A stretch of 64,000 nucleotides of DNA from the NCBI GenBank assembly GCA_964554265.1, contig CAZKOB010000002.1:386-64385 (forward strand), written 5' to 3'. The notes beneath the pieces were generated by a model that saw nothing but the letters and a program-made list of their open reading frames with translations, was not told where the DNA came from and did not search any database. The stretch is from an uncultured Bacteroides sp. (GTDB lineage Bacteria > Bacteroidota > Bacteroidia > Bacteroidales > Bacteroidaceae). The position numbers and the translations under genes were made by a program. Shown here piece by piece: positions 1-61,928 of this stretch; positions within the stretch are counted from its first letter, which is position 1; each line of letters opens with the position of its first letter.

Positions 1-490
1 ATTTTACCCCGAAAAACGGACGTTCTCAAACTCGTTCACCTTGAAAATAAATTTTGTTCACCTTGAAAAATTTTTTACAAGGCACTTTAAAACCATTTTC
101 AAGGTGAACAAAATTTATTTTCAGCGTACTCTTTTTTCAGGCAAATCATACGCAAATGTGAATAAATGTATCTTTTCGGAACAAAAATTATACTATTTTT
201 ACATTTTGGTTCCAAGGCCTGAAAATGACCTTAGAATCGCGTAAATGGAACTTCGACAAGGTTTGGCCGATTTTATGCGATTCTGCGATCCTTGAATTTT
301 AACATTTCAAATTGTCAAAAAAAACACATAATTCATGACAAATTGATGGTATATCCAAGCTGATTTGTGAGTCCAATGCCCATGAAAAGGCATCAAAGAA
401 AACGCGAGAATCTTCGATGAGAATGTTTTGGTGACACGATGACGAAGTCAGGAAAAAAGGGATGGTGTTGGAGCGTATAAAACTGAATAT
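1..490 (+). repeat. Interspersed noncoding repeat, copy A. Only the right-hand part is present; the left part lies outside the window.
   Basis: Aligns block for block with eight other copies. Shared blocks include ccgaaaaacggacg, gttcaccttgaaaat, aatgtgaataaatgtatcttttc, cagaatcgcg...gcgattct and ggtgacacgatgacgaagtcagg (431-452). A degenerate right terminal motif aaaactgaatat lies near 480-490. Confidence 0.9.
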
Positions 491-524
491 TTGTGGAGTG
501 CTGTATGAATGGGTGAACAAAGTT

Positions 525-570
525 AAAGTCAGGAATCGGCTTGGTGTAAGTATTCCCGATTCCTGACTTT
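525..570. terminator. Hairpin between repeat copy A and the 3' end of thrC; candidate bidirectional terminator
   Basis: The 15-bp arms aaagtcaggaatcgg (525-539) and ccgattcctgacttt (556-570) are perfectly complementary. The plus strand continues with the T-rich run cttcttttt, and there is an A-rich run on the other side. Confidence 0.65.
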
Positions 571-598
571 AGGCTTCTTTTTGTTGTGGTATATGTCT

Positions 599-1900
599 TT
601 ATCTGCTCATAAGATAAGCTTTGAAGTCGGCAAACTCTTTGCTCATTTCGACACTTTGCTTTGTGCCCTGCATGAATGCGGCGAGTTTTGCAGGAATCTC
701 TACTTCTGAGCCTATAATCTTTTCCACTGTATCGCGGAATTTCGCAGGGTGTGCGGTTTCAAGGAACACACCGACCTCGTCTTCGCGCAGACCTTCTTCC
801 AATGCGCGGTAACCGCATGCACCGTGAGGATCGCACAAGTATCCTGTAGCCTCATATACATTGCTTATCGTATCGGCAATCTGGCTGTCTGTGTATGTTG
901 CGCCGCTGACGTCCTCGCATACGGCTTCATGGCTTCCTTTGTACAAATCGTATATGCGGGCGAAATTGCTCGGGTCGCCGACGTCCATTGCGTTTGCGAT
1001 AGTCTGTACCGACGGACGAGGACTGTATTGTCCGGTTTGCAGATATTTATAGAATATGTCGTTGGCATTGTTTGATGCGATGAACCGTTTCACTGGAAGT
1101 CCCATCTTCTTGCCGAACAGGCCGGATGTGATGTTGCCGAAATTGCCGGAAGGTACGCAGATGACGAGTTGGTCGGCAAGCCCCTTCTTTTTCATCTGTG
1201 CGTATGCATGGAAATAGTAGAAAGCCTGCGGAAGGAATCTTGCCACATTGATGGAGTTCGCCGAAGTAAGTTTCATGTGGCGATTCAGTTCTTCATCCAT
1301 GAATGCTGATTTCACCAGCGCTTGGCAGTCATCGAACACACCGTCTATTTCTAAGGCTGTGATGTTTTGTCCGAGTGTGGTAAACTGGCATTCTTGTATA
1401 GGGCTTACCTTGCCTTTCGGGTAAAGTACATATACGTGTATGCCGTCGACACCGAGGAAACCGTTGGCAACAGCTGAACCGGTGTCGCCTGATGTTGCCA
1501 CCAGCACATTGACTTGCTCGTTGCCTTCCTGCTTGATGAAGTACCCGAGCAGACGTGCCATGAATCGCGCGCCTACATCCTTGAACGCAAGAGTCGGTCC
1601 ATGAAAAAGTTCAAGGCTGTAGATGTTGTCTTTCACCTTTACCACCGGACAGTCGAATGCCAGCGTGTCGTAGACAATCTGCTTGAGTGTGTCCGCCGGA
1701 ACGTCTTCACCGAAGAATGCGTCTGCTACAGTGTATGCAATTTCCTGGAATGTCATGTTTTCGATATTGTCGAAAAACTCCTTTGGAAGCGCTTTGATTA
1801 CTTCCGGCATATACAGTCCCTTGTCTTCTGCCAGCCCTTTCACTACAGCTTTGTGTAGGTCGGCAACAGGAGCTTTTGAGTTCGTACTGTAAAATTTCAT
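599..1900 (-). CDS. thrC: Threonine synthase
   Basis: 433-aa ORF with clear threonine synthase character, including the PLP-lysine context HGPTLAFKD. It is the last gene of a thrA / PGM-like / thrC operon. Confidence 0.93.
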   Translation of the reverse strand: MKFYSTNSKAPVADLHKAVVKGLAEDKGLYMPEVIKALPKEFFDNIENMTFQEIAYTVADAFFGEDVPADTLKQIVYDTLAFDCPVVKVKDNIYSLELFHGPTLAFKDVGARFMARLLGYFIKQEGNEQVNVLVATSGDTGSAVANGFLGVDGIHVYVLYPKGKVSPIQECQFTTLGQNITALEIDGVFDDCQALVKSAFMDEELNRHMKLTSANSINVARFLPQAFYYFHAYAQMKKKGLADQLVICVPSGNFGNITSGLFGKKMGLPVKRFIASNNANDIFYKYLQTGQYSPRPSVQTIANAMDVGDPSNFARIYDLYKGSHEAVCEDVSGATYTDSQIADTISNVYEATGYLCDPHGACGYRALEEGLREDEVGVFLETAHPAKFRDTVEKIIGSEVEIPAKLAAFMQGTKQSVEMSKEFADFKAYLMSR

Positions 1901-1913
1901 ATCTTGTGTTATG

Positions 1914-3185: not shown

Positions 3186-3296
3186 CTTTACATACGTTTT
3201 ATAAGGAACGTAGAACCGACATCCGAAAACCGGTGTGCAGGTTTTCGGTTCCTTCCGGCCGGTTCCGGTCCTTGTTCTCTTTGACTTGCTGTTTAT

Positions 3297-8319: not shown

Positions 8320-8756
8320 TTAAGGTGGTGTATTCGCAGGGGTTTCTCGTGGATTTTGATGGGCTTTAAACTGATGTATCCACGAGAAGAGTCTGTGAGT
8401 ACACAAGCAAAGGCAACTGTCTTTCTTATGAGCGTTTCTTCTTTCTTTTTGACACAAAATCCACCCGTTGCAGACAGAACCTTATTAACACAATTAAGAT
8501 TCGTTTACATTCTTCGGATTGCCAAGTTTTTAAATATTTATTGATAAGTAATTAATAATCAATAAGATACTATTTTGATAAAACTATGCGGTTTTAGATG
8601 CAAGAAGTACAGGTTGGAACAAAAATAGGATATGCTGATAATCAGTAAGTTATAAAAATTCTTGTCCAAGATTTCTGTTTTCCGCCACCAAAACCTATCT
8701 TTGTTTTTCGTGACATTGAAAAATCCGATTTCAGTTTTTTTAAGAAATTCATTTGG
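8320..8756 (+). repeat. Interspersed repeat, copy B. Only the left-hand part is present, and it breaks off abruptly at about 8756.
   Basis: Contains ttcttctttctttttgacac (8438-8455), ttattaacacaattaagattcgtttacat, tgataatcaataag, agatgcaagaagtacaggttgg, aaaataggatatgctgataatcag and ctatctttgtttttcgtgacattgaaaaatc. Homology to other copies stops after taagaaattcatttg. The left boundary is approximate. Confidence 0.85.
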
Positions 8757-9472
8757 ACAATACTGAGCAGCGACAGCTCCATCTGCAGCACCTCGCTCTT
8801 GGTGGTGGTGCCCAGGGCGAGGCGTCGCTGAGCCATCTGGTGCAGCGACTCGCGGTCGGATAGTGTCGAGACGCTCTGCCTGTAGTCGGACTGCGCCGAG
8901 AGCACTCCGAAGAACAGCGACGTGGTGTGTATGGCGATGTCCTGCATGGATGCCATGTATGCCCGCTGCGCCACTTCATACTCTATGGGTGCCGTCTTCT
9001 TCTCCCACTTCAGCGCGTTGAATGCCCTCAACGGCTGGGTGTAGCTGATGCGCATGGGCTGCGAATTGTAGGTCCTCTCCTTGTAGGTGAACTGCTCGAG
9101 TCGATACAGATACGACTGAAGAGAAACTGTACCTCCAGTTGCTGCTATCTTCTGATCCACCGACAGGGTGAGGCTGTTGGAGAGCGAATTGTTGTTTACA
9201 TACGCCACCTTGCCATCCTCGTAGTTGCGCGCCTCCACTATGGAGTGGTCGAAGTTCATCAGCCCGCCACTGAGGTTGATTGATGGTAGCAACTCAGCTT
9301 TGAATGACCGATAAGTCCAGTAGCTTGCCATGAAAGAGTAGCGTGCTAGTGACGCATCGTATGAATTCTGTTGGGCAATGCGAATGGCATTTGCTAATGA
9401 TAATTCTTGCGCTTCGGCATAACCTATAGATGTCACTAAGGAGATTATTGCAATGAAATACTTCATAATCAT
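8757..9472 (-). pseudogene. TolC-family outer membrane efflux protein; 5' fragment only
   Basis: Signal peptide MIMKYFIAIISLVTSIGYAEAQ, followed by about 238 aa of TolC-like sequence (ELSLANAIRIAQQNS..., ..RRLALGTTTKSEVLQMELSLL). The reading frame then runs into repeat copy B, adding about 38 unrelated residues before a stop at 8642. Family members are usually well over 400 aa. Confidence 0.8.
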
Positions 9473-9916
9473 AAAATTCCGGAAAGTCAGAACGGAACAG
9501 AATGCTATCTTCAGCCATCGCTTCTATGCGTTGTCTTAAAGTATTGCTATCTATAGAATGTCCATTTAATATATAACCTTTGAAAGGTTGGTAATTTTTC
9601 AAAGATAAAGTAAATGTTTTTTTCGATTGACAATAAATTATAGTGGTTTTATGTCTTTTTTTACAAATTATCTGAGAATTGTATAAGAATGTCTGATGCT
9701 TGTCATGCGTAGATTCCCAAGCCATGATGTTTAATAAATATTAAAATCTTTAGTTTGCATACTTTTGTGTCTTCAAAATCGAGCCAACAATACTTTTCTG
9801 TCGTATTAAATTCCCTGCACTGATTATCAAGAAGTACTACAAATTTGGAATGACTGAACCGGAAATATAAAAACACTCTTTTGAAAAATCAAAATCACCG
9901 TATTGTTTTTTGTAAT

Positions 9917-9994
9917 CAGCACTGCTGATTATAAAAACTGCACTGCTGATTTTATAATCTGCACTGCTGATTTTACAATCGGCAGTGCAGATTT
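9917..9994 (+). repeat. Four 21-bp-phased repeats with core c(a/t/g)gca(c/g)tgc(t/a)gatt
   Basis: Units start at 9917, 9938, 9959 and 9980. The first sits inside the 17-bp near-palindrome aatcagcactgctgatt (9914-9930). Units 2 and 3 are identical (ctgcactgctgatttta). Confidence 0.8.
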
Positions 9995-10462
9995 AAGAAA
10001 TAAGTGCGGTGAAAACTACTTTCCTGTGGAGTGAAATTAAATTTCTTCAGTCTGTAATGTAATGATTCTCAATGTTCTACAGGAAAAGAAAAGTTTGCGG
10101 CGGAGGAATCTGTGAGAACAACAGCTAAGAAACCATCCGACTCACGAGACGAGTCTGTAAATACACCGGTAAAATGATCTCTATTGTATATGGGAAACCG
10201 TTTTGCGCCCTATGGCAGGTACTTCCGTAAAAATGCTACATTCTTGGAGTGACTTTGTGCAATCAGCTCTTTGGCCTGCGGATTCAAATACTCTCAAAAT
10301 CGGCAGAAAACTTAGTTTTCTCCTTATTCTGTCATAAAAAAAACTATCATTGTTGGTGAAAAGAGATTTTTCAGTAACTTTGCAGCTATTACATGCGGAC
10401 TGCTGCAACAAGTTATACTGCTAATCAGAAATCTAAATATATAATTTTTATATCTTAAATAT

Positions 10463-14541: not shown

Positions 14542-14565
14542 GGTTGTTTGAGAAAATATGTGGGT

Positions 14566-14600
14566 GGCAGAGGAATGAGAATTCTTCTGCCGCTTTTTTG
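14566..14600 (+). terminator. Rho-independent terminator after the acyl-CoA dehydrogenase gene
   Basis: ggcagaggaatgagaattcttctgcc hairpin followed by gcttttttg. Confidence 0.7.
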
Positions 14601-14604
14601 TTGG

Positions 14605-15417
14605 AGAACTCTTAGAGACATTTCTTCTTTCTTTTTGACACTAAGTCCACCTATCGCGGATGGAATCTTTTTAACACAATTAAGGTTCATTTGCATTTGA
14701 ATGATTGCTGATTTCTTGATAATTTGTAGATAAATGATTGATAATCAAAAAAATACTATTTGGGTAGAACGGTGCAGTTTTAGATGCAAGAAGTACAGGT
14801 TGGGACAAAAATAGGAAATGTTGATAATCAACAAGTTATGAAATTATTCATCCAAAAATCCTGTTTTTCGTCGCCGGAATCTATCTTTGTTTTTCGTGGC
14901 ATTGAAAAATCCGATTTAAACTTTTTAAGAATTTAATTTGTGCAGCACCAAATTTCTGTCCGAAAAACGGACGTTTTCAAACTCGTGCACCTTGAAAATA
15001 AATTTCGTTCACCTTGAAAAAATTTTTAAAGCGCCTTTTAAACAAATTTGGTGCACCTTGAAAATTTATTTTCAGCGTACTCTTTTTTCAGACGATGCAC
15101 ACGCGAATGTGAATAAATGTATCTTTTCGGAGCGAAAATTGTATTGTTTTCACATTTGAATTTCAAGGCCTGAAAATGGCCTCAGAATCGCAAAAATGGA
15201 ACTTCGGTAAGGTTCGGCCGATTTTAAGCGATTCTACGGGCTTTGAATTTTAACATTTCAGATTGTCAGAAAAAGTCCGTAATTTATGACAAATAGATGG
15301 TATGGAGTGGAGATGACCAAACTGATTTATGAAGACCTTAGAACTCATGAAAAGACATCAAAGAAAACGCGAGAATCTTCGATGAGAATGTTTTGGTGAC
15401 ACGATGCCGAAGTCAGG
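14605..15417 (+). repeat. Interspersed repeat, copy C. The core is present but the left-hand module is missing.
   Basis: Runs from the ttcttctttctttttgacac block (about 14621) to ggtgacacgatgccgaagtcagg (ends at 15417). Its internal three-repeat segment is in the direct-repeat configuration. Confidence 0.9.
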
Positions 15418-20735: not shown

Positions 20736-20780
20736 CATCCGGCCATGCAAAATATCGGTTGCATGGCCGGATGTGTTTAT
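20736..20780 (+). terminator. Rho-independent terminator after the fucosidase gene
   Basis: catccggccatgcaa / ttgcatggccggatg form a 15-bp stem, followed by tgtttat. Confidence 0.7.
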
Positions 20781-20781
20781 G

Positions 20782-21600
20782 AACAGTTCTTCTTTCTTTT
20801 TGACAATAACTCCACCTGCCGCAAACGAAACTTTATTAACATAATTAAGATTCGTTTACATTCTGCCAATAGCCGAATTTGGGATGTTTTGTTGATAAAT
20901 AATTGATAATCAGTAAAATGCTGTTTCAGCAAAACGATGCGGTTTCAGGTGCAAAAGGTATAGGTGGAAACAAAAATAGGATGTGTTGATAATCAGCAGG
21001 TTATAGAATTATTTATCTAAAACCCTTGTTTTTCGTTGCCGGAATCCATCTTTGTTTTTCGTGGCATTGAAAAATCTGATTTAGACTTTTTAAGAAATTA
21101 ATTTGTGCAACACCGGATTTCAGCCCGAAAAACGGACGTTCTCAACTTCGTTCACCTTGAAAATAAATTTCGTTCATCTTGAAAATGTTTTTAAAGTGCC
21201 TTTTAAACAAATTTTGTTCACCTTGAAAATTTATTTTCAGCGTACTCTTTTTTCAGGCAAAGCATAAGCAAATGTAAATTAATGTATCTTTTCAGGCAGT
21301 AAATTATATTATTTTTACATTTGAGATTCAAGGCCCGAAAACGGCCTTAGAATCGCGTAAATGGAACTTCGGTAAGGTTTGGGCGATTTTATGCGATTCT
21401 GCGAGGCTTGGATTTTAACATTTCAGATTGTCAAAAAAAAGCCCGGAATTTATGACAAGTTGATAGTATATGACGGTGGGGGAAATCAAGCTGATTGATG
21501 AAGACATCAGCCTTGTTGCAGTGTGATGGCCGGACTGATAAACGAGGTCTATATCTTGGCAAATTCATTCTTTTTTAGTATTTTTGCGGAAACTGAATAT
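20782..21600 (+). repeat. Interspersed repeat, copy D. The core is present, with the alternative right-end module.
   Basis: Starts at the ttcttctttctttttgacaat block. Its internal segment is in the direct-repeat configuration. The right end (...ccttgttgcagtgtgatggccggactgataaacgaggtctatatct...aaactgaatat) matches copy E rather than A, C, F, H or I. Confidence 0.88.
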
Positions 21601-24741: not shown

Positions 24742-25977
24742 TACGCGAGTTCAGTTTAAATTTCCGGTTAAAAAAGGTTCCGGTTGCCCTTGCATTCTTC
24801 AATATGTATCTGCCGTGCCTCCGGCTTGTTGCTGAAAAGGGAATACGCCGTAAGTGTGGTGTAGATGTTCGCAAGGATGTTTGCAGTTGTTTTTTGCCGG
24901 TGGGGTTATAGATGACTCTTGTGATGCTTATGGTTGTAAGTGGTTGTATTCACAGACTCCTCCGTCGCTTCGCGCCACCTCCCCTAACTTAGGGGAGGAG
25001 CCTGGTTACTCAGTGGGTGTAAATGCTATCATGTTATCAACCAGCAAGTTGGCTTACAGTTGGCTTTTCAGCGAGCAAGGTAACTAAGCTCCTCCCCTAA
25101 GTTAGGGGAGGTGGCGCGAAGCGACGGAGGAGTCTGTGAAGACAACAGCAAAAACAGCTGACTTTCTTATAGACTTTTCTTCTTTCTTTTTGACACTAAC
25201 TCCACCTGTCGCAGACGGAACTTTATTAACATATTTAAGGTTCATTTACATTCAGCCAATAGCCGAAATTCCGAAGTTTTATTGATAAATGATTGATAAT
25301 CAATAAAATACTATTTTAGCAAGATGATGCAGTTTTAGGTGCAAGAAGCACAGGTTGTAACAAAATAGGATATATTGATAATCAGCGAGTTATGAAATTT
25401 CTTACCCAAGATTCTTGTTTTTCGCCGCCAAAATCCATCTTTGTTTTTCGTGGCATTGAAAAATACGATTTAATCTTTTTAAGAAATAAATTTGCACAAC
25501 ACCTGATTTCAGCCCGAAAAACGGACGTTTTCAAACTCGTTCACCCTGAAAATAAATTTTGTGCGCCTTGAAAAATTTTTTACAAGGCACTTTAAAACTA
25601 TTTTCAAGGTGAATGAAATTTATTTCCAGCGTACTCTTTTTACGGGCGATTCACGCACAAATGTGAATAAATGTATCTTTTCAAAACAAAAATTACATTA
25701 TTTTTACATTCTCGGTTCAAGGCCCGAAAACGGCCTCAGAATCGCGCAAATGGAACTTTGGTAAGGTTTGGCCGATTTTATGCGATTCTACGGAGCCTTG
25801 AATTTTAACATTTCAAATTGTCAAAAAAAACTTGAATTTTATGACAAACAGACGGTGTGACGGTGGGGATGACCAAGCCGGTTTATGAGGATGTCTGCCC
25901 TGTTGCAGCCTGACAGTCGGACTGACAAATAAGGTCTATATCTGCACTGATTCGTCGCTTAAAACCGAACTTGCGTA
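24742..25977 (+). repeat. Interspersed repeat, copy E. Full length, with terminal inverted repeats and the nested short-arm palindrome.
   Basis: The left end tacgcgagttcagtttaaa (24742-24760) is an imperfect inverted copy of the right end cttaaaaccgaacttgcgta (25958-25977). All internal blocks are present. It carries the alternative right-end module shared with copy D. Confidence 0.88.
24951..25138. repeat. Nested palindromic module in copy E
   Basis: Left arm 24951-25001 (cacagactcctccgtcgcttcgcgccacctcccctaacttaggggaggagc) is the exact reverse complement of right arm 25088-25138. The loop is 86 nt. Confidence 0.95.
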
Positions 25978-25994: not shown

Positions 25995-26036
25995 TGTGGC
26001 AAAATGTGGGGAAATGTGGGGAATTGCATATATTTG
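25995..26036 (+). promoter_or_regulatory. Candidate mraZ promoter with three phased MraZ-box repeats
   Basis: TGTGGC (25995-26000), TGTGGG (26005-26010) and TGTGGG (26015-26020) are spaced at 10 bp. They are followed directly by tatatttg (26029-36), which matches the Bacteroidetes -7 box TAnnTTTG. The site is about 50 nt upstream of mraZ. Confidence 0.6.
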
Positions 26037-43039: not shown

Positions 43040-44247
43040 TACGCGGGTTCGGTTTAAGAAAGTCCTGTAAAAGTTGGTAAGTAGGTGTTTTTACAGATGA
43101 CTATAGCTTGTGTTTTTGGGGGATTTTCGCAGATGTATTCACAGATGACTCTTATAATTCTTATGGTTATAAGCAGGTGTATTCACAGACTCCTCCGTCG
43201 CTTCGCGCCACGCCCTCCGTCGCAAGCTCCCCAATTGCTCCTATTCCGCAATTGCCCCTAACTTAGGGGAGGAGCCTGGTTTCCTTGTTCGCTGGAATAT
43301 CAATGATAGGTTAATATGTTGAATATCATTGGCGCGAAGCGACGGAGGAGTCTGTGAAGGCACCTGCAAAAACAACTGACTTTCTCAGAAACATTTCTTC
43401 TTTCTTTTTGTCACAAAAACTACTCGTTGCGGACGGAATCTTATTAACATAATTAAGATTTGTTTATATTTACTCAACCGTCTAAATTTTGATATTTCAT
43501 AGATAAACGATTGATAATCAATAAAATACTATTTTAGCAAAACAGTGCAGTTTTAGGTACAAGAAGTACAGGTTGTGACAAAAATAGGATACACTGATAA
43601 TCAGTAAGTTATGAAAATACCTGGCTGAGATTCCTGTTTTCTGCTACCAAAATCCATCTTTGTTTTTCGTGGCATTGAAAAATGTGATTTAGACTTTTTA
43701 AGAAAGTAATTTGTGCAACACCGGATTTCAACCCGAAAAACGGACTATCTCAAACTCGTTCACCTTGAAAATAAATTTCGTTCACCTTGCAATTTTTTTT
43801 ACAAGGCATTTTAAAACCTTTTTCAAGGTGAACGAAATAAATTTTCAGCGTACTCTTTTTTCAGGCGAGGCACACACGAATGTGAATAAATGTATCTTTT
43901 CAGAATGTGAATTATATTATTTTTACATTTGGGGTTCAAGGCTTGAAAACGGCCTTAGAATCGCGTAAATGGAACTTCAGTAAGGTTCGGTCGATTTTAT
44001 GCGATTCTACGAGTCTTGAATTTTAACATTTCAAATTGTCAAAAAAAGTCCGTAATTTATGACAAATGGATAGCGGAGATGAGACAACCACACTGATTTA
44101 CGAGAACATTGGGGCACATGAAAAGGCATCAAAGAACAGCGAAACTCTTCGATGAGAATTTTGGGGCGACACGATGACGAAGTCAGGGTGCATAAACATG
44201 CAAGATTACCAACTTTTTATAGGACCTTCTTAAATCGAATTCGCGTA
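43040..44247 (+). repeat. Interspersed repeat, copy F. Full length, with terminal inverted repeats and a nested long-arm palindrome whose right arm is truncated.
   Basis: Left end tacgcgggttcggtttaagaaagtcc (43040-43065) against right end ggaccttcttaaatcgaattcgcgta (44222-44247): 22 of 26 positions are complementary. All internal blocks are present, including ggcgacacgatgacgaagtcagg, which ends at 44187. Confidence 0.88.
43184..43356. repeat. Nested palindromic module in copy F (long left arm, truncated right arm)
   Basis: The left arm cacagactcctccgtcgcttcgcgccacgccctccgtcgcaagctccccaattgctcctattccgcaattgcccctaacttaggggaggagc matches the copy I arms. Only ggcgcgaagcgacggaggagtctgtg remains of the right arm. 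Confidence 0.85.
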
Positions 44248-51389: not shown

Positions 51390-52390
51390 TTTACGGTCAA
51401 TCGTTCTCGTCGAAGATTCTCGCTGTTCTCTGATGCCTTTTCATGGGCCCTGACGTCCTCATCAATCAGTTTGGTTATTCCATTCCACTATCTATTTGTC
51501 ATAAATCATGGGTTTTTCTTGATAATTTGAAATGTTAAAATTCAAGGCTCGCAGAATCGCATAAAATCGGCCGGACCTTACCAAAGTTCCATTTGCGCAA
51601 TTCTGAGGCTGTTTTCAGACTTTTAGCCCCAAGTGTAAAAATAATATAATTTGCATTCCGAAAAGATACATTTATTCACATTCGCGCGTGCATCGCCTGA
51701 AAAAAGAGTACGCTGGAAATAAATTTCGTTCACCTTGAAAATAGTTTTAAAGTGCCTTGTAAAAAATTTTTCAAGGTGAACGAATTTTATTTTCAAGGTG
51801 AACGAGTTCGAAAATGTCCGTTTTTCGGGCTGAAATAGGGTTTGACTAAATTTGATTTCTTAAAAAATCTGAATTGGATTTTTCAATGCCACGAAAAACA
51901 AAGACGGGTTTTGGCGACGAAAAACAGGAATTTTGGGCAAGATTTTTTTATAACTTATTGATTGTCAACATATTCTATTTTATCCCGACCCGTATTTCTT
52001 GCATCTGAAACCGCATTGTTTTGCTGAAATAGTATTTTACTGATTATCAATTGCTTATCTGTGAAATGTCAAAATTTAGACAGTTGATTAAGTGTAAATT
52101 AGTCTTAATTATGTTAATAAAGTCCCGTCAGTTAAAAGTGAACTTAGTGTCAAAAAGAAAGAAGAAATGTTCATAAGAAAATCAGCTGTTTTTGCTGTTG
52201 TATTCACAGACTCCTACTTTAAATCATCAATTTTACAAAAGTCGCCCGTGGAAACACCAGCTCACAACCATAAGAATCACAAGAATCATCCATGAATCCC
52301 CCGGCAACACACACAACCGATTCACTTTTTGAATCGATTTTCGCGTATCACCCAAAACCGCAGACATTAGAATTACAATCTATTAATATT
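51390..52390 (-). repeat. Interspersed repeat, copy G (reverse orientation). It includes the left-hand module, but the palindrome is reduced to a stub.
   Basis: The reverse complement carries every core block (e.g. gtgtcaaaaagaaagaagaa at about 52148-52167, ccgaaaagatacatttattcacatt, gaatcgcataaaatcggcc). Both boundaries are approximate to within a few tens of nt. Confidence 0.85.
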
Positions 52391-52545
52391 TAATCACTTA
52401 TAAACCTCAACATATTTTTTCAAAGAAATATGGCCCCAAAAAAGCAGGAACTTTTTCTTCTGTAAGTTCGCAATATTGGAAAAAATCTATCTACATCAAG
52501 TATTTTTTCTTATATTTACAGCATAAATTCAAAAAAACAGGTCCT

Positions 52546-53376
52546 ATGGAGAAAAGAGCGGAATACATACAGAGCATAGAAATAAAGGCTCTCTGGAAAG
52601 GAGGACGACATATTGAATGGCATCTGCGTCCTGACGTCAACATCCTCAGTGGAATAAACGGAGTAGGAAAAAGTACAATCATAAACCACTCCGTAAAAGT
52701 GCTCGACTTGATTGACAGCGGAGAACTGCGCCCCGGAGAAGTAATACAAGGCATCAACATCAAATTGTATCCGGAGGATGCCACAACTATGAAATTCGAT
52801 GTAATACGCAGTTTTGATCGTCCGCTTCTCAATAGCGACTTGCTTGAGAAACTGTCGGATTCAAGAGTAAGGACAGAACTTGACTGGCAGATATACAAGC
52901 TCCAGAAACGCTATCTTGACTATCAGGTGAATATCGGAAACAGGATTATCGAACTGCTGACAAGCAGCAATCCGGAAAACCAGTTGTTAGCGACGGAAGT
53001 GTCCAAACCCAAGATGCAATTCCAAAATATCATAGATGAACTGTTCAAAGACACATTGAAGAAGATAGACCGCAAAAGCAATGAAATACTGTTTATACAG
53101 AACGGTGAAAGGCTGACCCCCTACCAGCTTTCTTCCGGAGAAAAACAAATGCTTGTAATCATGCTGACCGTGCTTGTAGAAAATGGGGAGCACTACGCAT
53201 TACTGATGGATGAACCGGAAATAAGTCTGCACATAGAATGGCAGCAGCAGCTTATCAAGCTGATACGAGAACTCAATCCGAACGCACAGATAATTCTGTC
53301 AACTCATTCCCCGGCCTTAATCATGGACGGATGGATAGACAAAGTGACAGAGGTTACAGATGTTACCATGAAATAA
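52546..53376 (+). CDS. Compact ABC-type (AAA_21/AAA_15-like) ATPase, AriA-like
   Basis: Walker A SGINGVGKST, ABC-signature-like LSSGEKQ, Walker B ALLMDEPEISLH and an H-loop-like STHSP, in only 276 aa. It lies 16 nt upstream of the DUF4435-like gene. Confidence 0.8.
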   Translation: MEKRAEYIQSIEIKALWKGGRHIEWHLRPDVNILSGINGVGKSTIINHSVKVLDLIDSGELRPGEVIQGINIKLYPEDATTMKFDVIRSFDRPLLNSDLLEKLSDSRVRTELDWQIYKLQKRYLDYQVNIGNRIIELLTSSNPENQLLATEVSKPKMQFQNIIDELFKDTLKKIDRKSNEILFIQNGERLTPYQLSSGEKQMLVIMLTVLVENGEHYALLMDEPEISLHIEWQQQLIKLIRELNPNAQIILSTHSPALIMDGWIDKVTEVTDVTMK

Positions 53377-53392
53377 AGAAAGGGCTGCGAGT

Positions 53393-54484
53393 ATGGCTAA
53401 AACTCTGACAGACAATCTGACTTCGCGATATTTCAATGCCGCCAACAAGCTACGTCCGGGAAAGAAGAAACAAAAAATCATAGCCTACGTCGAGAGCTAT
53501 GACGACATCTTCTTCTGGAGGAGTGTGTTCTCTGAATACGAAACCGATGAGCGCACATTTGAGGTCGTGTTGCCTTCACGAACCAAACTATCACGCGGAA
53601 AGAAAACAGCCATGATGAACCGGCTCGGAGTGAACCTCGGAACGAGCATGATTGCATGTGTCGATGCCGACTATGACTATCTGCTGCAGGGCAAGACACA
53701 GTTTTCGCACCAGATGCTGTCCAATCCTTATATTTTCCATACTTATACGTATGCTATAGAGAACTACCAGTGCTATGCACCAAGCCTGCATAACGTATGC
53801 GTTATGGCCACTCTCAACGACCGTCAGGTGTTCAATTTTGAGGCTTATCTGCGCAGCTATTCCGAAATCATATACGATCTGTTCGTCTGGTCTGTCTGGA
53901 TGTACCGGGAAGAACACTACAAAGACATGCCGCTAACGACATTCTGCAACTTCATAGCTGTCAACCATGTAAATCTTTACCATCCGGAAAAAGCTCTTGA
54001 AGAACTGCGGCATGTGGTGAACCGCAAGATGGCATGGATGCAAAAGCATTATCCACAGGCGCGCGGACAGATAAAACCGTTAAAAGAAGAGCTGCAAACT
54101 CTTGGGGTCCGTCCGGACAACACTTATTTATATATACAAGGACACCACCTGCTCGACAATGTAGTGATGCAAGTACTCGACCCTGTGTGCACTCTGTTGA
54201 GAAGGGAACGGGAAAAAGAAATAAAGAGGCTTGCCGGACATACCCAGCAAATGGACAACGAATTATCAAGCTATATGCACAGCCAATGCCCGATAGACCA
54301 AATGGTGAGACGCAATACTTCATTCAAGCAATCGGAGCCTTACCAAAGACTGAAGAATGACATCGAGGCTTTTCTGCAACGAATAGACAACAACGGAAAT
54401 ACGGATAAACAAAAGACAGAAACGGAAGACAGTCAAGCGGTCAAGCTGTTAACAAATGAGGAGGAAGCCGACAAGCCATTCTGA
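53393..54484 (+). CDS. DUF4435 / OLD-type Toprim-like protein, AriB-like
   Basis: Conserved acidic pattern expected of DUF4435/Toprim: IIAYVESYDD (Glu), ACVDADYDYL (DxD) and YAIENY. It has an acidic, low-complexity C-terminal tail. The domain assignment is by motif recognition only. Confidence 0.65.
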   Translation: MAKTLTDNLTSRYFNAANKLRPGKKKQKIIAYVESYDDIFFWRSVFSEYETDERTFEVVLPSRTKLSRGKKTAMMNRLGVNLGTSMIACVDADYDYLLQGKTQFSHQMLSNPYIFHTYTYAIENYQCYAPSLHNVCVMATLNDRQVFNFEAYLRSYSEIIYDLFVWSVWMYREEHYKDMPLTTFCNFIAVNHVNLYHPEKALEELRHVVNRKMAWMQKHYPQARGQIKPLKEELQTLGVRPDNTYLYIQGHHLLDNVVMQVLDPVCTLLRREREKEIKRLAGHTQQMDNELSSYMHSQCPIDQMVRRNTSFKQSEPYQRLKNDIEAFLQRIDNNGNTDKQKTETEDSQAVKLLTNEEEADKPF

Positions 54485-55358: not shown

Positions 55359-55584
55359 ATTAAAAAGATGTACAACACCTACGATAGTATGCCACGAAGT
55401 CTTTTTCACACATCAAAAAGCAAGCATATTTGAAATATGAATTACATTTTTGTATAACAATTTCAAAATAATAATCAAAATAATTATATTTGCCGAGGAT
55501 TTGCGTCATAAAGAAACATAAACGAAAGAAAACATTACAAGTGTCACAAACAAAAAGAATATACGAACAAAAAACAGAATCATC

Positions 55585-57249: not shown

Positions 57250-57317
57250 CAACACCGTTTATGGAGTTGGGGATGCTTGGCAATAGATTTCCCAAGTGAA
57301 TACGAATACTTGGTTAA

Positions 57318-58279
57318 TACGCGAGTTCGGTTTAAGAAAGTCCTATAATATAAAAAGTGGTAATCTTGCAAGTTTTTTGCCGGTGGATTTACAGGCTTCT
57401 CTTGTGATTCTTACTGTTGTTTTCACAGAATCCTCCAATTTGTGAATACACCGGCAAAAACAGCGAGCTTTCTTAGTGGCATTTCTTCTTTCTTTTTGAC
57501 ACCAAGTCCACCCATTGCAAACGGACTTTTATTAACATAATTAAGATTCGTTTACACTTGTCCGGCTATCGAATTTTTGAAATTTTATTGATAAGCGATT
57601 GATAATCAAAGAAATACTATTTCAGCGAAACTATACAGTTTCAGGTGCAAGGAGTATAAGTTGAAACAAAAATAGGATGTGTTGATAATCAATGAGTTAT
57701 AAAAAATCTTGTCTAAGATTTCTATTTTTCGTCGCCAAAACCCATCTTTGTTTTTCGTGGCATTGAAAAATCTGTTTTTGATTTTTTAAGAAATCACTTT
57801 TAGTCAATGTCCAATTTCAGCCTGAAAAACGGGCATTCTCAAACTCGTTCACCTTGAAAATAAATTTCGTTCACCTTGAAAATTTTTTTGCAAGGCACTT
57901 TAAAACCATTTCCAGGGTGAACAAAATTTATTTCCAGCGTACTCTTTTTTCAGGCGAGGCACGCGCGAATGTGAATAAATGTATCTTTTCGGAATGCAAA
58001 TTATATTATTTTTATATTTTGGATTCAAGGCTTGAAAACGGCCTTAGAATCGCGTAAATGGAACTTCGGTAAGGTTCGGCCGATTTTACGCGATTCTGCG
58101 AGCCTTGAATTTTAACATTTCAGATTGTCAAGAAAAGCCCATAATTTATGACAATCAGATGGTGTGAAGGTAGGGATGACCAAGCAGATTTATGAGGAGA
58201 TTAGGACTCATGAAAAAGATATCAAAGAAAGCACGGAACTCTTCGATGGGAATTTTTTTGTGATACGATGACGAAGTCA
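57318..58279 (+). repeat. Interspersed repeat, copy H. The left-hand module is present and the palindrome is reduced to a stub.
   Basis: Starts with tacgcgagttcggtttaagaaagtcc. It has cacagaatcctccaatttgtgaatac where other copies carry the long palindrome. The core blocks run through gatacgatgacgaagtca (ends at 58279). Confidence 0.88.
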
Positions 58280-58406
58280 CACAAAAACGCAGAAAAACAA
58301 ACGGACAGAATATCAAAAACAAGGAAACAGATTCTAAAAAAAACGGAAGCATAGATTCCGCTATACTTCCGACAATTAATCATTTTGAAGAAAAACACGA
58401 ACCGTG

Positions 58407-59735
58407 TCACTGCGTCATACGGAATGCCACAGGAGTGTTATATTTTACCTTGACAGGCCTGCCATTCCGCATGCCCGGCTTCCATTTGGGCATACTAAGT
58501 ATAGCCCTTATCGCTTCTGCATCAAGCAAAGGATGTACACTCTTGGTTATTTTCGGGTCTATGATACTGCCATCAGTATCTATAGTGAAAGAGACAAGAA
58601 CCCTCCCTTGAATACCTAAATCCATTGCTGCCGACGGATATTTAACATTTTTAGCCCAAAAACTTAGCAGTGCCTCCATTCCTCCCGGAAACTCCGGCAT
58701 CTTTTCCACAACCTGATACACTTGCTCTGTACTATCAGCCTGCGTCTCCCCACCATCTGCCTGCGCCTCATCTCCATTGTCGAAATCATCTTCGGCCATT
58801 ACACCTCTTGCCTTCATAATTTCATCGAAAGACAATGCTCCGGGTGTCAATTCAAATATCACTGGAATTTCTACACACGAGCGCACAACCATCCCGAAAT
58901 GTTTGGCCGATTCCCAATCCGGCATTGCTTTGACAATACGAATTGCTTCTTTTTCAAACAGAGGATCACATTCATTCACTACCTTAATGCCTGTAAGCAT
59001 TCCACTCTGTTCGACTATACACGATACAAAGGCCACACCTTGCAAACCTTGATTTTTCGCTTGCTCAGGATATTTCATCAGAGCCTTTATAAAAAGAAAC
59101 ATATTGCCGCTGCCTCCGGGGTAAGATGCTTTACATTCCGGAGAAAGAATAACCTTGTTTGCCAAATTCCCGATTCGGGTTTTGGGTTTCACCACAGGGA
59201 CATCCGAATCAGTCTGATTGGACGAAGCCACAGGAGCGGTCTTGTCTTCCACAATACGAAAAGCCACAGGAACGCTATATTTCACCTTGACTACAGTGCC
59301 GTTTTGCTTTCCCGGAATCCATTTGGGCATGGTTTGAATCACTCTCTTTGCCTCATCATCAAGCAAGGGATGGACGCTTTTCACGACCTTAGGATCGACA
59401 ATGCTGCCATCGGTATCCACAGTGAAAGAGACTACAACCCTCCCTTGAATGCAACTATCCAATGCCACAGCCGGATATTTGACATTCTGGGCAAGATAAT
59501 TGAACTGTGCTTCCATTCCACCCGGAAACTCCGGCATCTGTTCCACAACCTGATACACCTGCCCTGAAATATCAACGGTATCCCTTTTCGCCACCACGAG
59601 GTCTGCCTCATATACACGGCCGAACGAAGCTCCGACATCGGCCACAGCGAACCCCTGTGCGGAGGCCGATATCACAGAGCACGCACATATCAGCCTTATC
59701 CGCTTAGGCAAGGGGGTAAAAAATCTTAAATACAT
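58407..59735 (-). CDS. Secreted protein with three TonB C-terminal-like domains
   Basis: Three copies of the pattern MPEFPGG..(N/K)VKYP..A....IQGRV.VSF.(V/I)D.DGS(I/V)..P.......P.LD.EA.R.....PKW.PG..NG..V.V.Y..PV.F. The middle copy is divergent. The N-terminus looks like a signal peptide rather than the usual TonB anchor plus Pro-rich linker. Confidence 0.85.
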   Translation of the reverse strand: MYLRFFTPLPKRIRLICACSVISASAQGFAVADVGASFGRVYEADLVVAKRDTVDISGQVYQVVEQMPEFPGGMEAQFNYLAQNVKYPAVALDSCIQGRVVVSFTVDTDGSIVDPKVVKSVHPLLDDEAKRVIQTMPKWIPGKQNGTVVKVKYSVPVAFRIVEDKTAPVASSNQTDSDVPVVKPKTRIGNLANKVILSPECKASYPGGSGNMFLFIKALMKYPEQAKNQGLQGVAFVSCIVEQSGMLTGIKVVNECDPLFEKEAIRIVKAMPDWESAKHFGMVVRSCVEIPVIFELTPGALSFDEIMKARGVMAEDDFDNGDEAQADGGETQADSTEQVYQVVEKMPEFPGGMEALLSFWAKNVKYPSAAMDLGIQGRVLVSFTIDTDGSIIDPKITKSVHPLLDAEAIRAILSMPKWKPGMRNGRPVKVKYNTPVAFRMTQ

Positions 59736-59828
59736 ATTTTTATTCGTTTTTCAGAAAAAAAGATGCTAATCTCTTTCTTAAAAATGCTCTATAACTATCC
59801 CCTCTCTATTACAAAACAAATTTAAGCT

Positions 59829-60354
59829 CTACTTTGGCATAGACTTTGCTTTTGCCTTCGACGGATTCAGACGAAAAGCGACCGGTACTGAATATTGCAC
59901 TCTCACCGGCTTGCCATTCCGCATACCCGGCTCCCATTTAGGCATATTGCTGATTACACGCATTGCCTCCGCATCAAGTTGAGGATGGGCAGGAATGGTA
60001 ATTCTCGCATCCGAAACACTACCATCCTTGTCTACTGTAAATGTCACCACAGAACGACCCTGGATGCTGTCTTCCAATGCCTGTTTCGGATATACGACAT
60101 TTTTTTTGGATATACGACATCATGGCCTTCACACCTCCCGGGAATGAAGGCATCTGCTCTGCCTCCAGATACACTTGATCGGCACTGTCCGCAGATTCAA
60201 CACTGATTTCAGCAAAAGGAGTAACAGATGAATATGCCGCCAAAGACTCCGGCAACCTCTCAGCCGAAAAAGATGTGGCTGAAAAAAACATAGAAGAGAG
60301 AGCGCACAAAAACTTTGCGTGTCTCCATTGAACAGAAAGAAAATCTACTGTCAT
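59829..60354 (-). pseudogene. TonB C-terminal-domain protein interrupted by a +1 frameshift in an A8 tract
   Basis: ORFs 60019-60354 and 59829-60077 together encode one protein, ...MPSFPGGVKAMMSYIQK / NVVYPKQALEDSIQGRSVVTFTVDKDG.... Removing one base from the 8-nt homopolymer at 60100-60107 restores the frame. Confidence 0.8.
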
Positions 60355-60693
60355 TGTTTTTCCTATTTTTTAGATTTGAAAATGTTCCATTTCACGACAT
60401 GAACATAATGTTTTTACAAAAAACATTTCACTATCAATTGCATGCAAAGTTACAGAAAAGAAATAAATCAGACTCTAAAAACATGAAGATTTTATGGAGA
60501 TAAAGACAAAAAGGCTATACTGCGAGCCATCTGCAAGCGACTTTTTCTGCGATTCCCGCCTCATTCGTATACAACCGCAAGGGCAATATCCGTATTTTAC
60601 AGACAAAAAGCTCCGCCTCGGTCCGTTCCCTCCGCCGACTACGGCATGAGAGAGTGAATACAGGCAGAGCTGAATGACGGTATGGGTGTACTG

Positions 60694-61928
60694 CCTGACT
60701 TCGTCATCGTGTCACTCCAAAAATTCTCATCGGAGAGTTTCGCTGTTCTTTGATATCTTTTCATGTGTCCTGACGTCCTCATAAATCTGCTCGGTTATCC
60801 CATCTTCACACTATCTTTTTGTCATAAATTGCAGGGTTTTCTTGATAATCTGAAATGTTAAAATTCAAGGCTCGCAGAATCGCATAAAATCGACCGGACC
60901 CGACTGAAATTCCGTTTGTGCGATTCTGAGGCCATTTTCAGGCCTTGAAATTCAAATGTAAAAATAATATAATTTGTATTCTGAAAAGATACATTTATTT
61001 ACACTCGCGTGTGCTTTGTTTGAAAAAAGAGTACGCTGGAAATAAATTTCGTTCACCTTGAAAATGTTTTTAAAGTGCCTTGTGAAAAATTTTTCAAGGT
61101 GAACAAAATTTATTTTCAAGGTGAACGAGTTTGAGAACGTCCGTTTTTCGGGCTGAAATTGGATATTGACTATAATTGATTTCTTAAAAAATCAAAATCG
61201 GATTTTTCAATGCCACGAAAAACAAAGATGGATTCCGGCAGCGAAAAACAGGAATCTTGGACAGGATTTTTTATAACTTGCTGATTATCAGTATATCCTA
61301 TTTTTATCTTCGCTTGTACTTCTTGCACCTAAAACTGCATTATCTTGTTAAAATAGTATTTTCTTGATAATCAATTGTTTATCTGTAAAATATCAAAACT
61401 TTGATAATTGAGTGAATGCAAACGAATCTTAATTGTGTTAAAAAGCTTCCATCCGATATGGATGGAGTTAGTGTCAAAAAGTAAGAAGAAATGTCTCTAA
61501 AAAAACTGTTGCTTTTGCTGGTATATTCACAGACTCCTCCGTCGCTTCGCGCCACGCCCTCCGTCGCAAGCTCCCCAATTGCTCCTATTCCGCAATTGCC
61601 CCTAACTTAGGGGGGAGGAGCTTAGTTACCTTGCTCGTTGGAAAGTTAATAGTAAGCTAATATGCTGGTTACTAATATGATAGCATTTACATCTGCTGAG
61701 TAACCAGACTCCTCCCCTAAGTTAGGGGCAATTGCGGAATAGGAGCAATTGGGGAGCTTGCGACGGAGGGCGTGGCGCGAAGCGACGGAGGAGTCTGTGA
61801 AAACACCAACTTGCAGCCATAAGATTTATAAGAGGAGTCTGTGAATACACTTGCTCTGTTTTGAAGCGATTTTCGCGTATCACCTTAAACCGTAAGCATT
61901 AGAATTACAGCCTATTGGCATTTATGTG
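60694..61928 (-). repeat. Interspersed repeat, copy I (reverse orientation). Full-size, with the long-arm palindrome.
   Basis: Begins on the plus strand with cctgacttcgtcatcgtgtcac and contains all core blocks and the palindrome. It is flanked by 23-nt direct repeats at 60671-60693 and 61929-61951. Confidence 0.88.
61528..61799. repeat. Nested palindromic module in copy I (arms of about 90 nt)
   Basis: The arms cacagactcctccgtcgcttcgcgccacgccctccgtcgcaagctccccaattgctcctattccgcaattgcccctaacttagggg... and their reverse complement match, apart from a 2-nt G-run difference. The loop is about 85 nt. Confidence 0.92.

Follow-up and report, generated by a model that had tools for sequence, protein, structure and literature searches.

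Nine copies or fragments of one repeat occupy 8,067 bp (12.6 %) of the window, that is, of the whole 64,000-nucleotide stretch of DNA analysed here. On balance, the family is probably a lineage-specific, non-autonomous, modular (mosaic) mobile DNA, namely a very large, gene-free repeat of the kind of MITEs or mobile insertion cassettes. It looks like a family restricted to its lineage, so far undescribed, and large for a protein-less mobile repeat.

Composition and conservation of the repeat family

The repeat consists of a single core of ∼810 bp, which extends to 0.8–1.24 kb with its end modules. The same nine loci were recovered identically by self-comparison, by blastn and by an nhmmer profile, and the original prediction of a ninefold repeat filling about one eighth of the window was borne out, with copy coordinates off by no more than a few tens of bases (Table 1). 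All nine copies are intergenic, as had been claimed, and are found in varied intergenic contexts and on both strands; the element is A+T-rich, with a G+C content of 37–41 % versus 45–53 % in genes. A tenth copy (J) was located just beyond the window, which gives 10 copies in ∼68 kb. Copy G adjoins a PARIS defence gene pair, at the position of the GC-skew switch.

Table 1. Positions of the repeat copies and of their component features in the window (TIR, terminal inverted repeat; P, long palindrome).
Feature	Position	Strand	Description
Copy A	1–452	+	3′ half of core, cut by window start; common terminus GTGACACGATGACGAAGTCAGG at 431–452
Copy B	8386–8763	+	5′ half of core only
B junction	∼8763		abrupt join to 3′-truncated TolC/OEP-like ORF 8642–9472 (−); deletion scar
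Solo motifs	10100–10175	+	two ∼35-nt copies of the core 5′ start motif (GAGTCTGTGAATACA..GCAAAA), no core attached
Copy C	14605–15417	+	core without ∼45 nt at 5′ end; common 3′ terminus
22-nt tandem array of C	14983–15065		3.8 units
Copy D	20775–21560	+	middle of C subfamily (direct third unit); alternative 3′ tail common to E
22-nt array of D	21150–21237
Copy E	24742–25977	+	full-length TIR type, 1236 bp; core from 25130
E TIRs	24742–24759 and 25960–25977		TA at both flanks
E palindrome P arms	24951–24976 and 25113–25138
Copy F	43040–44247	+	full-length TIR type, 1208 bp; core 43348–44187
F TIR arms	43040–43072 and 44215–44247		85 % complementary, reaching ∼55 bp; TA flanks
F leader			three ∼46-nt units; palindrome P at 43173–43367
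Most conserved block ATCTTTGTTTTTCGTGGCATTGAAAAAT	43651–43684	+	invariant throughout in 7 aligned copies; one G-to-A in B
Iteron-like region of F	43756–43835	+	two direct units TCGTTCACCTTGAAA 22 bp apart and an inverted unit
Copy G	51398–52390	−	core 51398–52213 without last ∼40 nt; alternative 5′ module common to I
Copy H	57318–58281	+	core 57436–58281; short palindrome version; common 3′ terminus
H left TIR	57318–57335		reaching ∼57375; right TIR absent
Right direct repeat of I	60671–60691	−	21 nt, GTACACCCATACCGTCATTCA
Copy I	60692–61928	−	complete unit, 1237 bp; alternative 5′ module, common 3′ terminus
I palindrome P	61528–61799
Left direct repeat of I	61929–61949	−	21 nt, GTACGCCCATACCGTCATTCA; 8 nt past proA stop

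The ordered series of blocks that had been ascribed to every copy is present, but A lacks the 5′ blocks and B the 3′ blocks; the last block (ggtgacacgatgacgaagtcagg) is missing from D, E and G, and the third gttcaccttgaaaat unit is direct, not inverted, in C and D. The core carries a 22-nt-period array of near-palindromic units. In the iteron-like region of F, each unit contains the near-palindrome TTCAnnnTGAA, and 16-nt arms are 100 % complementary. Divergence is higher than the one position in ten estimated by eye, full-length blastn identity being 79–87 % and segment-wise identity 52–95 %. Conservation is significantly patchy (window variance exceeded by 0 of 5000 shuffles): 55 % of the compared columns are invariant, and the longest invariant run measures 27 nt, a length reached by 2 of 5000 shuffles, so that the near-invariant blocks noted earlier are real. 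The nearest-copy relationship switches from segment to segment, and this mosaic similarity indicates recombination between copies. The earlier argument for constraint or gene conversion holds.

Among the copies, no ORF that has a start codon is conserved, and a Pfam search over the six frames of F gave no match and no DDE or HTH remnant, in line with the statement that no intact ORF is conserved. Database homologues other than the family members themselves were not found. Transposase and integrase domains were absent from every sizeable ORF of the window, as originally reported.

Ends, flanks and occurrence beyond the window

E and F carry TIRs of 33–55 bp at both ends, each flanked by TA, and H retains the left TIR only. 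No TIRs were detected at the remaining copies with up to three mismatches; both TIRs are present in 2 of the 10 copies, and the TA at the flanks of E and F could simply be the first two TIR bases. Copy I is abutted exactly at both ends by 21-nt direct repeats that differ by one mismatch (score 37, shuffled maximum 24; unique within the window), the left of which contains the hairpin CGGTA-cgccca-TACCG. As I itself lacks TIRs, two or more end architectures coexist in the family. Nothing significant was obtained for flanking repeats at the other copies; the 21-mer of I was found at none of them, so a common att site is lacking. Copies A, C, F, H and I end at the same sharp 3′ terminus, as does J outside the window, and no flanking tetranucleotide is shared beside it. 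Both C and D had been described as starting immediately after a terminator hairpin. C begins ∼10 nt past a strong acyl-CoA dehydrogenase terminator (14562–14595); the hairpin upstream of D is weaker and has no T-run.

At least seven further diverged copies exist outside the window, namely six pseudo-proteins on six other contigs, none of which exceeds 84 % identity to a window copy, and J; a local segmental duplication is refuted. Relatives with ∼70 % protein identity keep the araC-fucosidase-DUF6198-LysO synteny without the element, with a spacer of ∼260 bp versus 971 bp here. A search with one conserved 21-mer returned only chance matches in 185,579 species genomes and the JGI metagenomes, blastn against 72,556 plasmids and 50,697 phages found no similarity, and motif scans of IMG/VR contigs were empty. 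In several samples, every conspecific metagenome contig stops at an element boundary, and as far as these contigs extend, element orientation is constant across samples. The copies are old (13–21 % apart) and fixed in all populations sampled; the family is therefore not claimed to be currently mobile.

Polarity, RNA structure and alternative readings

The original prediction had left three options, a mobile element, a structured RNA and a boundary element that binds a host factor. The first gained from the TIRs with TA, the 21-bp repeat, the 3′ terminus, the outside copies and the relatives without the element. Against it stand the presence of both TIRs in so few copies, with a TA that is perhaps part of the TIR, a 21-bp repeat that greatly exceeds the usual length of transposase duplications and sits at a copy without TIRs, and the absence of any transposase, integrase or candidate helper within the window; the patchy conservation could also mean that the copies function in place. 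The boundary option is kept alive by the 22-nt near-palindromic units and the replication-related polarity. A GC-skew switch lies near 52 kb and persists once the gene-strand effect is removed. Relative to it, 9 of 10 copies have one polarity (p ∼0.02, n=10), with opposed orientation groups across the switch (A–F on the plus strand; G, I and J on the minus strand) and H as the sole copy of opposite polarity to replication. A and B hold the polarity of their group although the surrounding genes lie on the opposite strand.

If the repeat is a polar DNA element that serves the host, its core would be a cis-acting chromosomal site at which a host protein binds the 22-nt units, with an effect dependent on direction relative to replication; examples may be a Ter-like fork trap, a signal for segregation or orientation, an insulator or a nucleoid-domain element, perhaps originally spread by mobility. 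We regard this as unlikely. Opposed groups around a real skew switch, the polarity of A and B and the very high density of copies at the switch are in its favour, as are the TTCAnnnTGAA arrays, which are kept at 22-nt period in both subfamilies despite differing orientation, and the patchy conservation, in which the top block shows no change at the first, second or third codon positions of an overlapping small ORF. However, H breaks the pattern, p is only ∼0.02 with ten copies, a dif-like site was looked for near the switch and not found, at least six more copies are on other contigs, and a test for A-tract phasing gave no robust result; a master-copy lineage selected for mobility would likewise be expected to show patchy conservation. 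It is quite improbable that the element is a polar, protein-bound chromosome-organising site (fork trap or segregation signal) that was spread by mobility and is arranged in two opposed groups at the terminus. To our knowledge, 0.8 kb far exceeds the size of any known Ter, KOPS or parS site, and no termination system has been described for Bacteroidota. Ter sites of the Tus-Ter (E. coli) and RTP-Ter (B. subtilis) systems are ∼20–30 bp long and not mobile; they resemble the present family in arrangement only (two opposed groups flanking a skew switch, repeated protein-binding-like units), whereas the element consists of diverged 0.8-kb repeats for which protein binding and fork arrest are hypothetical.

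If the copies were instead noncoding RNA genes of ∼0.8 kb, they would be transcribed, blocks and hairpins would represent RNA structure, and the polarity would reflect selection for transcription co-directional with replication, with which the orientation bias is in keeping. Hairpins are numerous (folding z = −3.70), a few stems have compensatory changes (for example YTGATAATCAR, with T..A, C..G and T..G variants), and local helices on the plus strand are marginally above control (observed values reached in 2, 5 and 9 of 500 shuffles), a signal that according to the caveat of the pair-counting tool is within reach of unstructured alignments. Folding is, however, symmetric (z = −3.63 for the opposite strand), and the RNAalifold covariation terms, −0.05 and +1.42 kcal mol−1 for the plus and minus strands, are close to zero net, the power being limited in an alignment of only 7 sequences. 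Departures in strand-neutral stems comprise 77 G·T versus 96 A·C, and ∼19 % of the stem cells are not Watson–Crick. Members of the C/D subfamily, which also occur elsewhere in the genome, cannot form the longest hairpin, and no conserved promoter of the Bacteroidota or sigma-70 type was found. A covariance-model search of Rfam, whose large structured RNAs include OLE, GOLLD, ROOL, HEARO and group II introns, gave 0 matches at gathering score, in agreement with the earlier failure to recognise a family, and only miRNA-like hairpin noise (E up to 5) at permissive thresholds. With covariation near zero, symmetric z-scores and no excess of G·U over A·C, the large structured RNA that had been proposed is unsupported, and RNA genes of this kind appear improbable.

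There is also a slight chance that the copies are relics of integrated replicons or integrative elements, that is, an iteron origin with a 5′ rep or int stub that was duplicated or site-specifically integrated, or that E and F are phase-variable invertible segments. Invertons, invertible segments bounded by inverted repeats, are known from the order, and inverted repeats do bound E and F; the constant orientation across samples, within the reach of the contigs, argues against inversion. The relic reading would account for 22-bp units with an inverted copy ∼250 bp upstream of the start of a decaying ORF (MTKLIYEDVRTHEK..; ATG in 3 of 8 copies) and for a flanking repeat of att-core size. It is opposed by the empty plasmid, phage and IMG/VR searches, by the absence of the stub peptide from every protein of 5.8 billion clusters, by the restriction of the 21-mer to I and by the lack of a recombinase nearby.

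Comparison with known repeats and a proposed route of spread

MITEs and mobile insertion cassettes of bacteria are TIR-bounded, non-autonomous elements that are moved in trans; RUP, for instance, is thought to be mobilised by IS630-Spn1, an element with insertion at TA. IS200/IS605-derived elements (IS608) and REP/BIME sequences, which depend on HUH enzymes and single-stranded DNA, have hairpins, a mosaic build, an orientation tied to the replication strand and no target duplication, and are much shorter. The present element shares the lack of TIRs (in most copies), the many hairpins, the mosaic build and the strand-tied orientation, but no TnpA or RAYT gene was seen, there is no fixed target tetranucleotide, and an apparent 21-nt duplication flanks I.

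TIRs, a terminal 5′-TA-3′ and target duplications are typical of bacterial MITEs, with a described size of less than 200 bp (PMC2229807). The element resembles them and mobile insertion cassettes in being noncoding, A+T-rich, multi-copy and intergenic, with TIRs that begin and end with TA in E and F. It differs in its length (4–6 times the 200 bp, and at 0.8–1.24 kb also beyond a limit of ∼200–500 bp), in the rarity of paired TIRs, in its long conserved unique core, in one copy that has a 21-bp flanking repeat instead and in that no cognate IS was identified. Elements of the IS630 family insert at TA, which is duplicated (PMC2170065); TA flanks and a size of 1.2 kb would suit a derivative of IS630/Tc1-mariner type, whereas no DDE or HTH remnant is present in any frame. 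YPAL/RU-2 have internal inverted repeats and target duplications of 3–26 bp, with targets at or beside dyad symmetries (PMC2229807). Likewise, the apparent 21-bp duplication of I spans a small hairpin, and terminator hairpins immediately precede C, D and F (that of D being the weaker one); YPAL/RU-2 and ERIC-type repeats are, however, 127–168 bp long and not A+T-rich, and the long duplication occurs here at one copy only. BrickBuilt of Porphyromonas gingivalis is a species-restricted, modular and always intergenic MITE with a leader and a tail that have small inverted-repeat ends, internal 23-nt tandem units (up to 22.8), a total length of up to 991 nt and many partial copies (19 copies in all, 0.44 % of the genome; PMC4596501). 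The likeness to this element, also from Bacteroidales, is one of architecture (modules at the 5′ and 3′ ends, an array of 22-nt period, copies that are partial, 0.8–1.24 kb): BrickBuilt is mostly minisatellite, whereas the present element has 3–4 units within an 810-bp unique core and takes up 12.6 % of the window.

For the mobile, MITE-like family favoured here, the unit comprises a variable 5′ module (either of TIR type or alternative), a leader in which short boxes recur and which has a long palindrome, the A+T-rich conserved core of ∼810 bp, which is full of hairpin-forming inverted repeats and contains the 22-nt-period array, and the sharp 3′ terminus. Such units would have been inserted into intergenic DNA, often just beyond a terminator or hairpin, by an enzyme encoded elsewhere that possibly acts on hairpins. 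Fixation would then have been followed by reshuffling through recombination or gene conversion between copies, some of which were presumably truncated by deletion. The conserved blocks may be cis-acting sites (protein-binding units, hairpins) for the mobilising machinery or a host factor, and the common polarity may have arisen because copies were inserted into one replication strand or selected on it.

Should this reading be correct, an unusually large protein-less mobile repeat makes up one eighth of a region of housekeeping genes (dcw cluster, thr, pro, mre) and would fragment short-read assemblies of this uncultured Bacteroidales lineage. The coexistence of two kinds of ends (TIR with TA; apparent 21-bp duplication spanning a hairpin) and an orientation tied to the replication strand are unusual among MITE-like elements; both hint at mobilisation via hairpins or single-stranded DNA, a route undescribed for elements this large. 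With copies polarised around a skew switch that resembles a terminus, a host function also becomes open to test. Recombination between copies would also remodel intergenic regions, and at least one deletion scar has been left.

Copies of the element and their modular anatomy

The same nine loci were recovered by self-comparison, by blastn with the two longest copies as query and by an nhmmer profile of the aligned cores. Summed, they occupy 8,067 bp (12.6% of the window), in agreement with the original prediction of nine copies filling about one eighth of it. The unit common to the copies is a core of ~810 bp. Full-length identity between copies is 79–87% (blastn), and the copies are thus more diverged than the one difference in ten positions estimated by eye. 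The predicted ordered series of blocks is present, with exceptions: A lacks the 5' blocks, B the 3' blocks and D, E and G the last block, and the third 22-nt unit is direct instead of inverted in C and D.

Positions of the element copies and of other features (window coordinates unless a contig is named)
Feature	Position	Strand	Remark
Copy A	1-452	+	cut by window start
Copy B	8386-8763	+	5' half only
Copy C	14605-15417	+
Copy D	20775-21560	+
Copy E	24742-25977	+
Copy F	43040-44247	+
Copy G	51398-52390	-
Copy H	57318-58281	+
Copy I	60692-61928	-
Copy J	1-54 of conspecific short-read contig L031	-	strand in the sense of the window; about 3 kb (~3.3 kb) past its right edge
Core, in F	43378-44187
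TolC/OEP-family ORF	8642-9472	-	3'-truncated, only 276 aa
Minisatellite	9914-9994		3.9 units of 21-22 nt
Solo core start motifs	10100-10175		two in tandem, ~35 nt each
Direct repeat AAATGTGGGG	26002-26023		2.2 units
24-codon ORF, in F	43604-43678	-
GC-skew switch	about 51500-52500
PARIS-type pair	52546-54484	+
TonB-like protein	58407-59735	-	three TonB_C domains
Repeat within TonB-like gene	58417-58716 and 59254-59553		300 nt, direct, 74% identity

The copies are modular in build. Inverted repeats (TACGCGRGTTCRGTTTAA...) bound E and F, in F over 33 nt at 85% with some similarity up to about 55 nt, and all four ends are directly bordered by TA; the terminal inverted repeat (TIR) sequence of the element is TACGCGRGTTCGGTTTAAGAA... 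H has the left inverted repeat only; the 5' module of G and I is of another kind, common to these two. A palindrome of 170–270 bp with perfect arms of 26–38 nt occupies one and the same place in E, F and I, and H has a 25-nt miniature of it. The leader consists of three ~46-nt units with a box that is the inverse of the first 15 nt of the core. The core start motif also occurs twice without a core (GGAGGAATCTGTGAGAACAACAGC.. and GAGTCTGTAAATACACCGGTAAAA), either as the remnant of a lost copy or as an independent small repeat. One sharp 3' terminus (...GTGACACGATGACGAAGTCAGG) is common to A, C, F, H, I and the tenth copy, J, just outside the window; D and E share another 3' tail. The first ~45 nt are missing from C and D, both of which begin just past hairpins; the claim that these are terminators was borne out for C, where the terminator is strong, but D follows only a weak hairpin.

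In the middle of the core, units of TCGTTCACCTTGAAA recur with a 22-nt period, each with the near-palindrome TTCAnnnTGAA. Two direct units and one inverted unit form a 16-bp perfect hairpin in most copies; in the C/D subfamily, which comprises C, D and two or more copies elsewhere in the genome, about four units form a direct array without the hairpin. A-tract curvature was significant by a Fourier test against a crude null only, and was dropped because the autocorrelation lacks a 10–11-bp peak. The 3' end of the TolC-like ORF runs into copy B with an abrupt junction at about 8763; the deletion of half an element together with some of the gene probably turned this ORF into a pseudogene.

Invariant positions make up 55% of the aligned columns and are clustered: the longest invariant run (27 nt) was reached by 2 of 5000 shuffles and the variance among 20-nt windows was exceeded by none of 5000. 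The nearest neighbour of a copy shifts along the element, from D-E (0.84) to D-F (0.94), C-D (0.91), G-I (0.95) and F-H (0.92). Within the C-D segment both copies stand at 0.71–0.77 to all others, and D has the 3' tail of E and the middle of C. This segment-wise incongruence indicates that copies, or their source lineages, have recombined or undergone gene conversion. The suggestion of constraint or gene conversion holds: conservation is patchy and similarity mosaic. The patchiness fits constraint at the copies' sites and descent from source copies kept mobilisation-competent alike.

Coding potential and RNA structure

The long open frame of the element (57–91 codons) lacks an ATG and in E is directly preceded by a stop codon. 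It was rejected as a gene: its variability at third positions (0.139) is only 1.5 times that at positions 1 and 2 (0.091 and 0.088), and nothing in the database is related to it except six copies of the element. A decayed transposase was also rejected, as a Pfam scan of F in all six frames had no match up to E = 1. Near the 3' end of the element, the ATG of a short ORF starting MTKLIYEDVRTHEK... is kept in three of eight copies and indels shift the frame; a parent gene with this beginning was discarded, the peptide being in no database protein. Every one of the eight copies covering the 24-codon minus-strand ORF (MPRKTKMDFG..EKQESW..) has its ATG; D and H have truncated versions of this ORF, and G an extended one. 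The ORF overlaps a 28-nt block in which no codon position varies and was judged noncoding, though it might conceivably encode a micropeptide, and no small ORF was convincing. The element is not a protein gene and, as had been predicted from the lack of a conserved intact ORF, was concluded to be noncoding.

A family of large structured RNAs had been proposed as one possible identity. Compensatory changes do occur in a few small hairpins, and local helices on the plus strand gave values reached by only 2, 5 and 9 of 500 column shuffles, a marginal signal that is weak by the pair-counting tool's own calibration; on the minus strand the observed values were reached by 61, 66 and 50 of 500. The RNAalifold covariation terms for seven cores were -0.05 kcal/mol (plus strand) and +1.42 kcal/mol (minus strand). 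Folding was stronger than that of shuffled sequence to the same extent on both strands (z -3.70 and -3.63), which is the signature of DNA palindromes. Stems defined by Watson–Crick pairs had about 19% of their cells unpaired and showed no excess of G·T over A·C departures (77 vs 96, p = 0.17). Searches of Rfam, as had been recommended, gave no match at gathering score and only sub-threshold miRNA-like hairpin matches at permissive thresholds, and the promoter search found no conserved Bacteroidota TTTG/TAnnTTTG or sigma-70 site. Because of the missing Rfam match, near-zero covariation, strand-symmetric folding, lack of G·T excess and lack of a conserved promoter, the element is probably not a large structured RNA, within the limited power of seven sequences.

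Insertion, distribution and polarity

Direct evidence of insertion comes from copy I, which stands between GTACGCCCATACCGTCATTCA and GTACACCCATACCGTCATTCA, the two copies of a 21-bp direct repeat with a single mismatch. The repeat abuts the 5' end of the copy and begins 2 nt past its 3' terminus; it lies 8 nt past the proA stop, holds a small hairpin and occurs nowhere else in the window (alignment score 37, shuffled maximum 24). At least this one complete unit (1,237 bp) was acquired by an insertion that duplicated a long target, and the single mismatch suggests that this happened after the time of the family's common ancestor. No significant flanking repeat was found at any other copy.

Local segmental duplication as the origin of the copies was refuted by copies on other contigs, by syntenic relatives free of the element and by contigs that end at element boundaries. 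A search of a protein database of 5.8 billion clusters with the long open frame as query returned six "proteins" of 65–118 aa, each on a separate NCBI contig of 23–60 kb; none exceeds 84% identity to a window copy (tblastn), and they are therefore further copies, two of them of the C/D subfamily. Same-species short-read contigs from several sequencing runs share identical proteins next to the elements, and every one breaks off at an element boundary: one of 17.3 kb spans exactly E to F and one of 5.2 kb G to H. The contig carrying proA has one end inside copy I and begins at the other with the last 54 nt of J, upstream of a phosphomannose isomerase gene; J ends at the common terminus GACGAAGTCAGG and is oriented as G and I. 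No empty sites were seen in conspecific strains, all contigs breaking at the elements. Two relatives at 70–72% protein identity keep the araC-fucosidase-DUF6198-LysO synteny and have no copy within 12–17 kb.

The best-conserved 21-mer, GTTTTTCGTGRCATTGAAAAA, is present in all eight copies that span its block. As one exact pattern, which diverged relatives may escape, it gave only two chance matches in 185,579 species, each represented by one genome, one unrelated match in JGI metagenomes and none in IMG/VR. A phage, plasmid or viral origin was rejected, as the plasmid, phage and viral collections held no match; blastn of copy F against plasmid and phage collections returned nothing. Within one narrow lineage the family extends across the genome, and in the populations sampled the copies of the window are fixed.

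Cumulative GC skew reaches its maximum near 51–52 kb. When skew was split by gene strand and side, gene strand contributed about 0.07 and a positional term (about +0.11 left of the switch, -0.05 to -0.10 right of it) remained; the switch is thus a genuine signal of the replication type. A replication terminus, or a point where oppositely replicated stretches meet, probably lies within the window; searches with the E. coli and B. subtilis consensus detected no dif-like site near the switch. Left of the switch, A–F are all on the plus strand, A and B included although they lie among minus-strand genes; right of it, G, I and J are on the minus strand and H on the plus strand. Nine of the ten copies thus share one polarity (two-sided binomial p about 0.02). 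Possible causes are insertion into one replication strand, as in elements mobilised via single-stranded DNA, selection against the other orientation, or a polar function.

Relation to known elements and genomic context

The repeat is real and matches nothing in any library searched; no named family had been recognised at the outset, and the Rfam, Pfam, plasmid, phage and literature searches bear this out, the last yielding no paper with the conserved motifs or a description of such an element. Bacterial MITEs typically have TIRs and terminal TA (PMC2229807), and IS630-family elements duplicate TA on insertion (PMC2170065). The element resembles MITEs and mobile insertion cassettes in its A+T-richness and noncoding, intergenic nature and, in copies E and F, in the TIRs bordered by TA, but is too large for the MITE size criterion. 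Among the closest kinds, compared by description, is BrickBuilt, a MITE of P. gingivalis that is built from a leader, a tail and 23-nt tandem units, reaches 991 nt and also occurs as partial copies (PMC4596501); the modular build, tandem units and partial copies are common to both. YPAL-type repeats, with internal inverted repeats and 3–26-bp duplications at dyad symmetries (PMC2229807), are also among the closest.

The element was left outside any named family because of its size, its two coexisting end architectures, its long unique conserved core and its replication-linked polarity. The proposal of a non-autonomous transposable element gains from the duplication flanking copy I and the TA-bordered TIRs of E and F. 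The element is described here as working like a non-autonomous mobile element, and on balance we lean towards a new, unusually large, modular mobile repeat of this kind, particular to one Bacteroidales lineage. A domesticated polar role in the chromosome is possible.

The genes of the window are chromosomal housekeeping genes: thrA, thrC, a phosphoglycerate mutase homologue and priA; ETF and acyl-CoA dehydrogenase; a DUF5013 fucosidase with AraC regulator; the dcw cluster from mraZ to ftsZ with a Bacteroidetes-type FtsL; purH, mreBCD, PBP2 and rodA; and a PARIS defence pair, sodB, asnB, a TonB-like protein and proBA. As predicted, no transposase or integrase domain was found anywhere in the window. 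Convergent, divergent and tandem gene pairs all have copies between them, so the element keeps no set arrangement relative to the transcription units beside it. Among named proteins, those most similar to the LysO-like protein come from Prevotellaceae and Bacteroides MAGs and are 68% identical to it, which places the host in a Bacteroidales lineage without close sequenced relatives.

The PARIS-type anti-phage pair, an AAA_15/AAA_21 ATPase and a DUF4435 protein (PADLOC matches AriA, 2.5e-56, and AriB, 2.7e-63), directly adjoins copy G at the GC-skew switch. The minisatellite upstream of the ETF operon has units of AATCTGCACTGCTGATTTTAC with the palindromic core CAGCACTGCTG, and the conspecific short-read contigs L022–L029 all begin right after it, at 9987. 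Immediately upstream of mraZ, 25 nt past the right TIR of copy E, the direct repeat AAATGTGGGG resembles the GTGGG-type direct-repeat operators bound by MraZ. The gene of the TonB-like protein contains an internal direct repeat.
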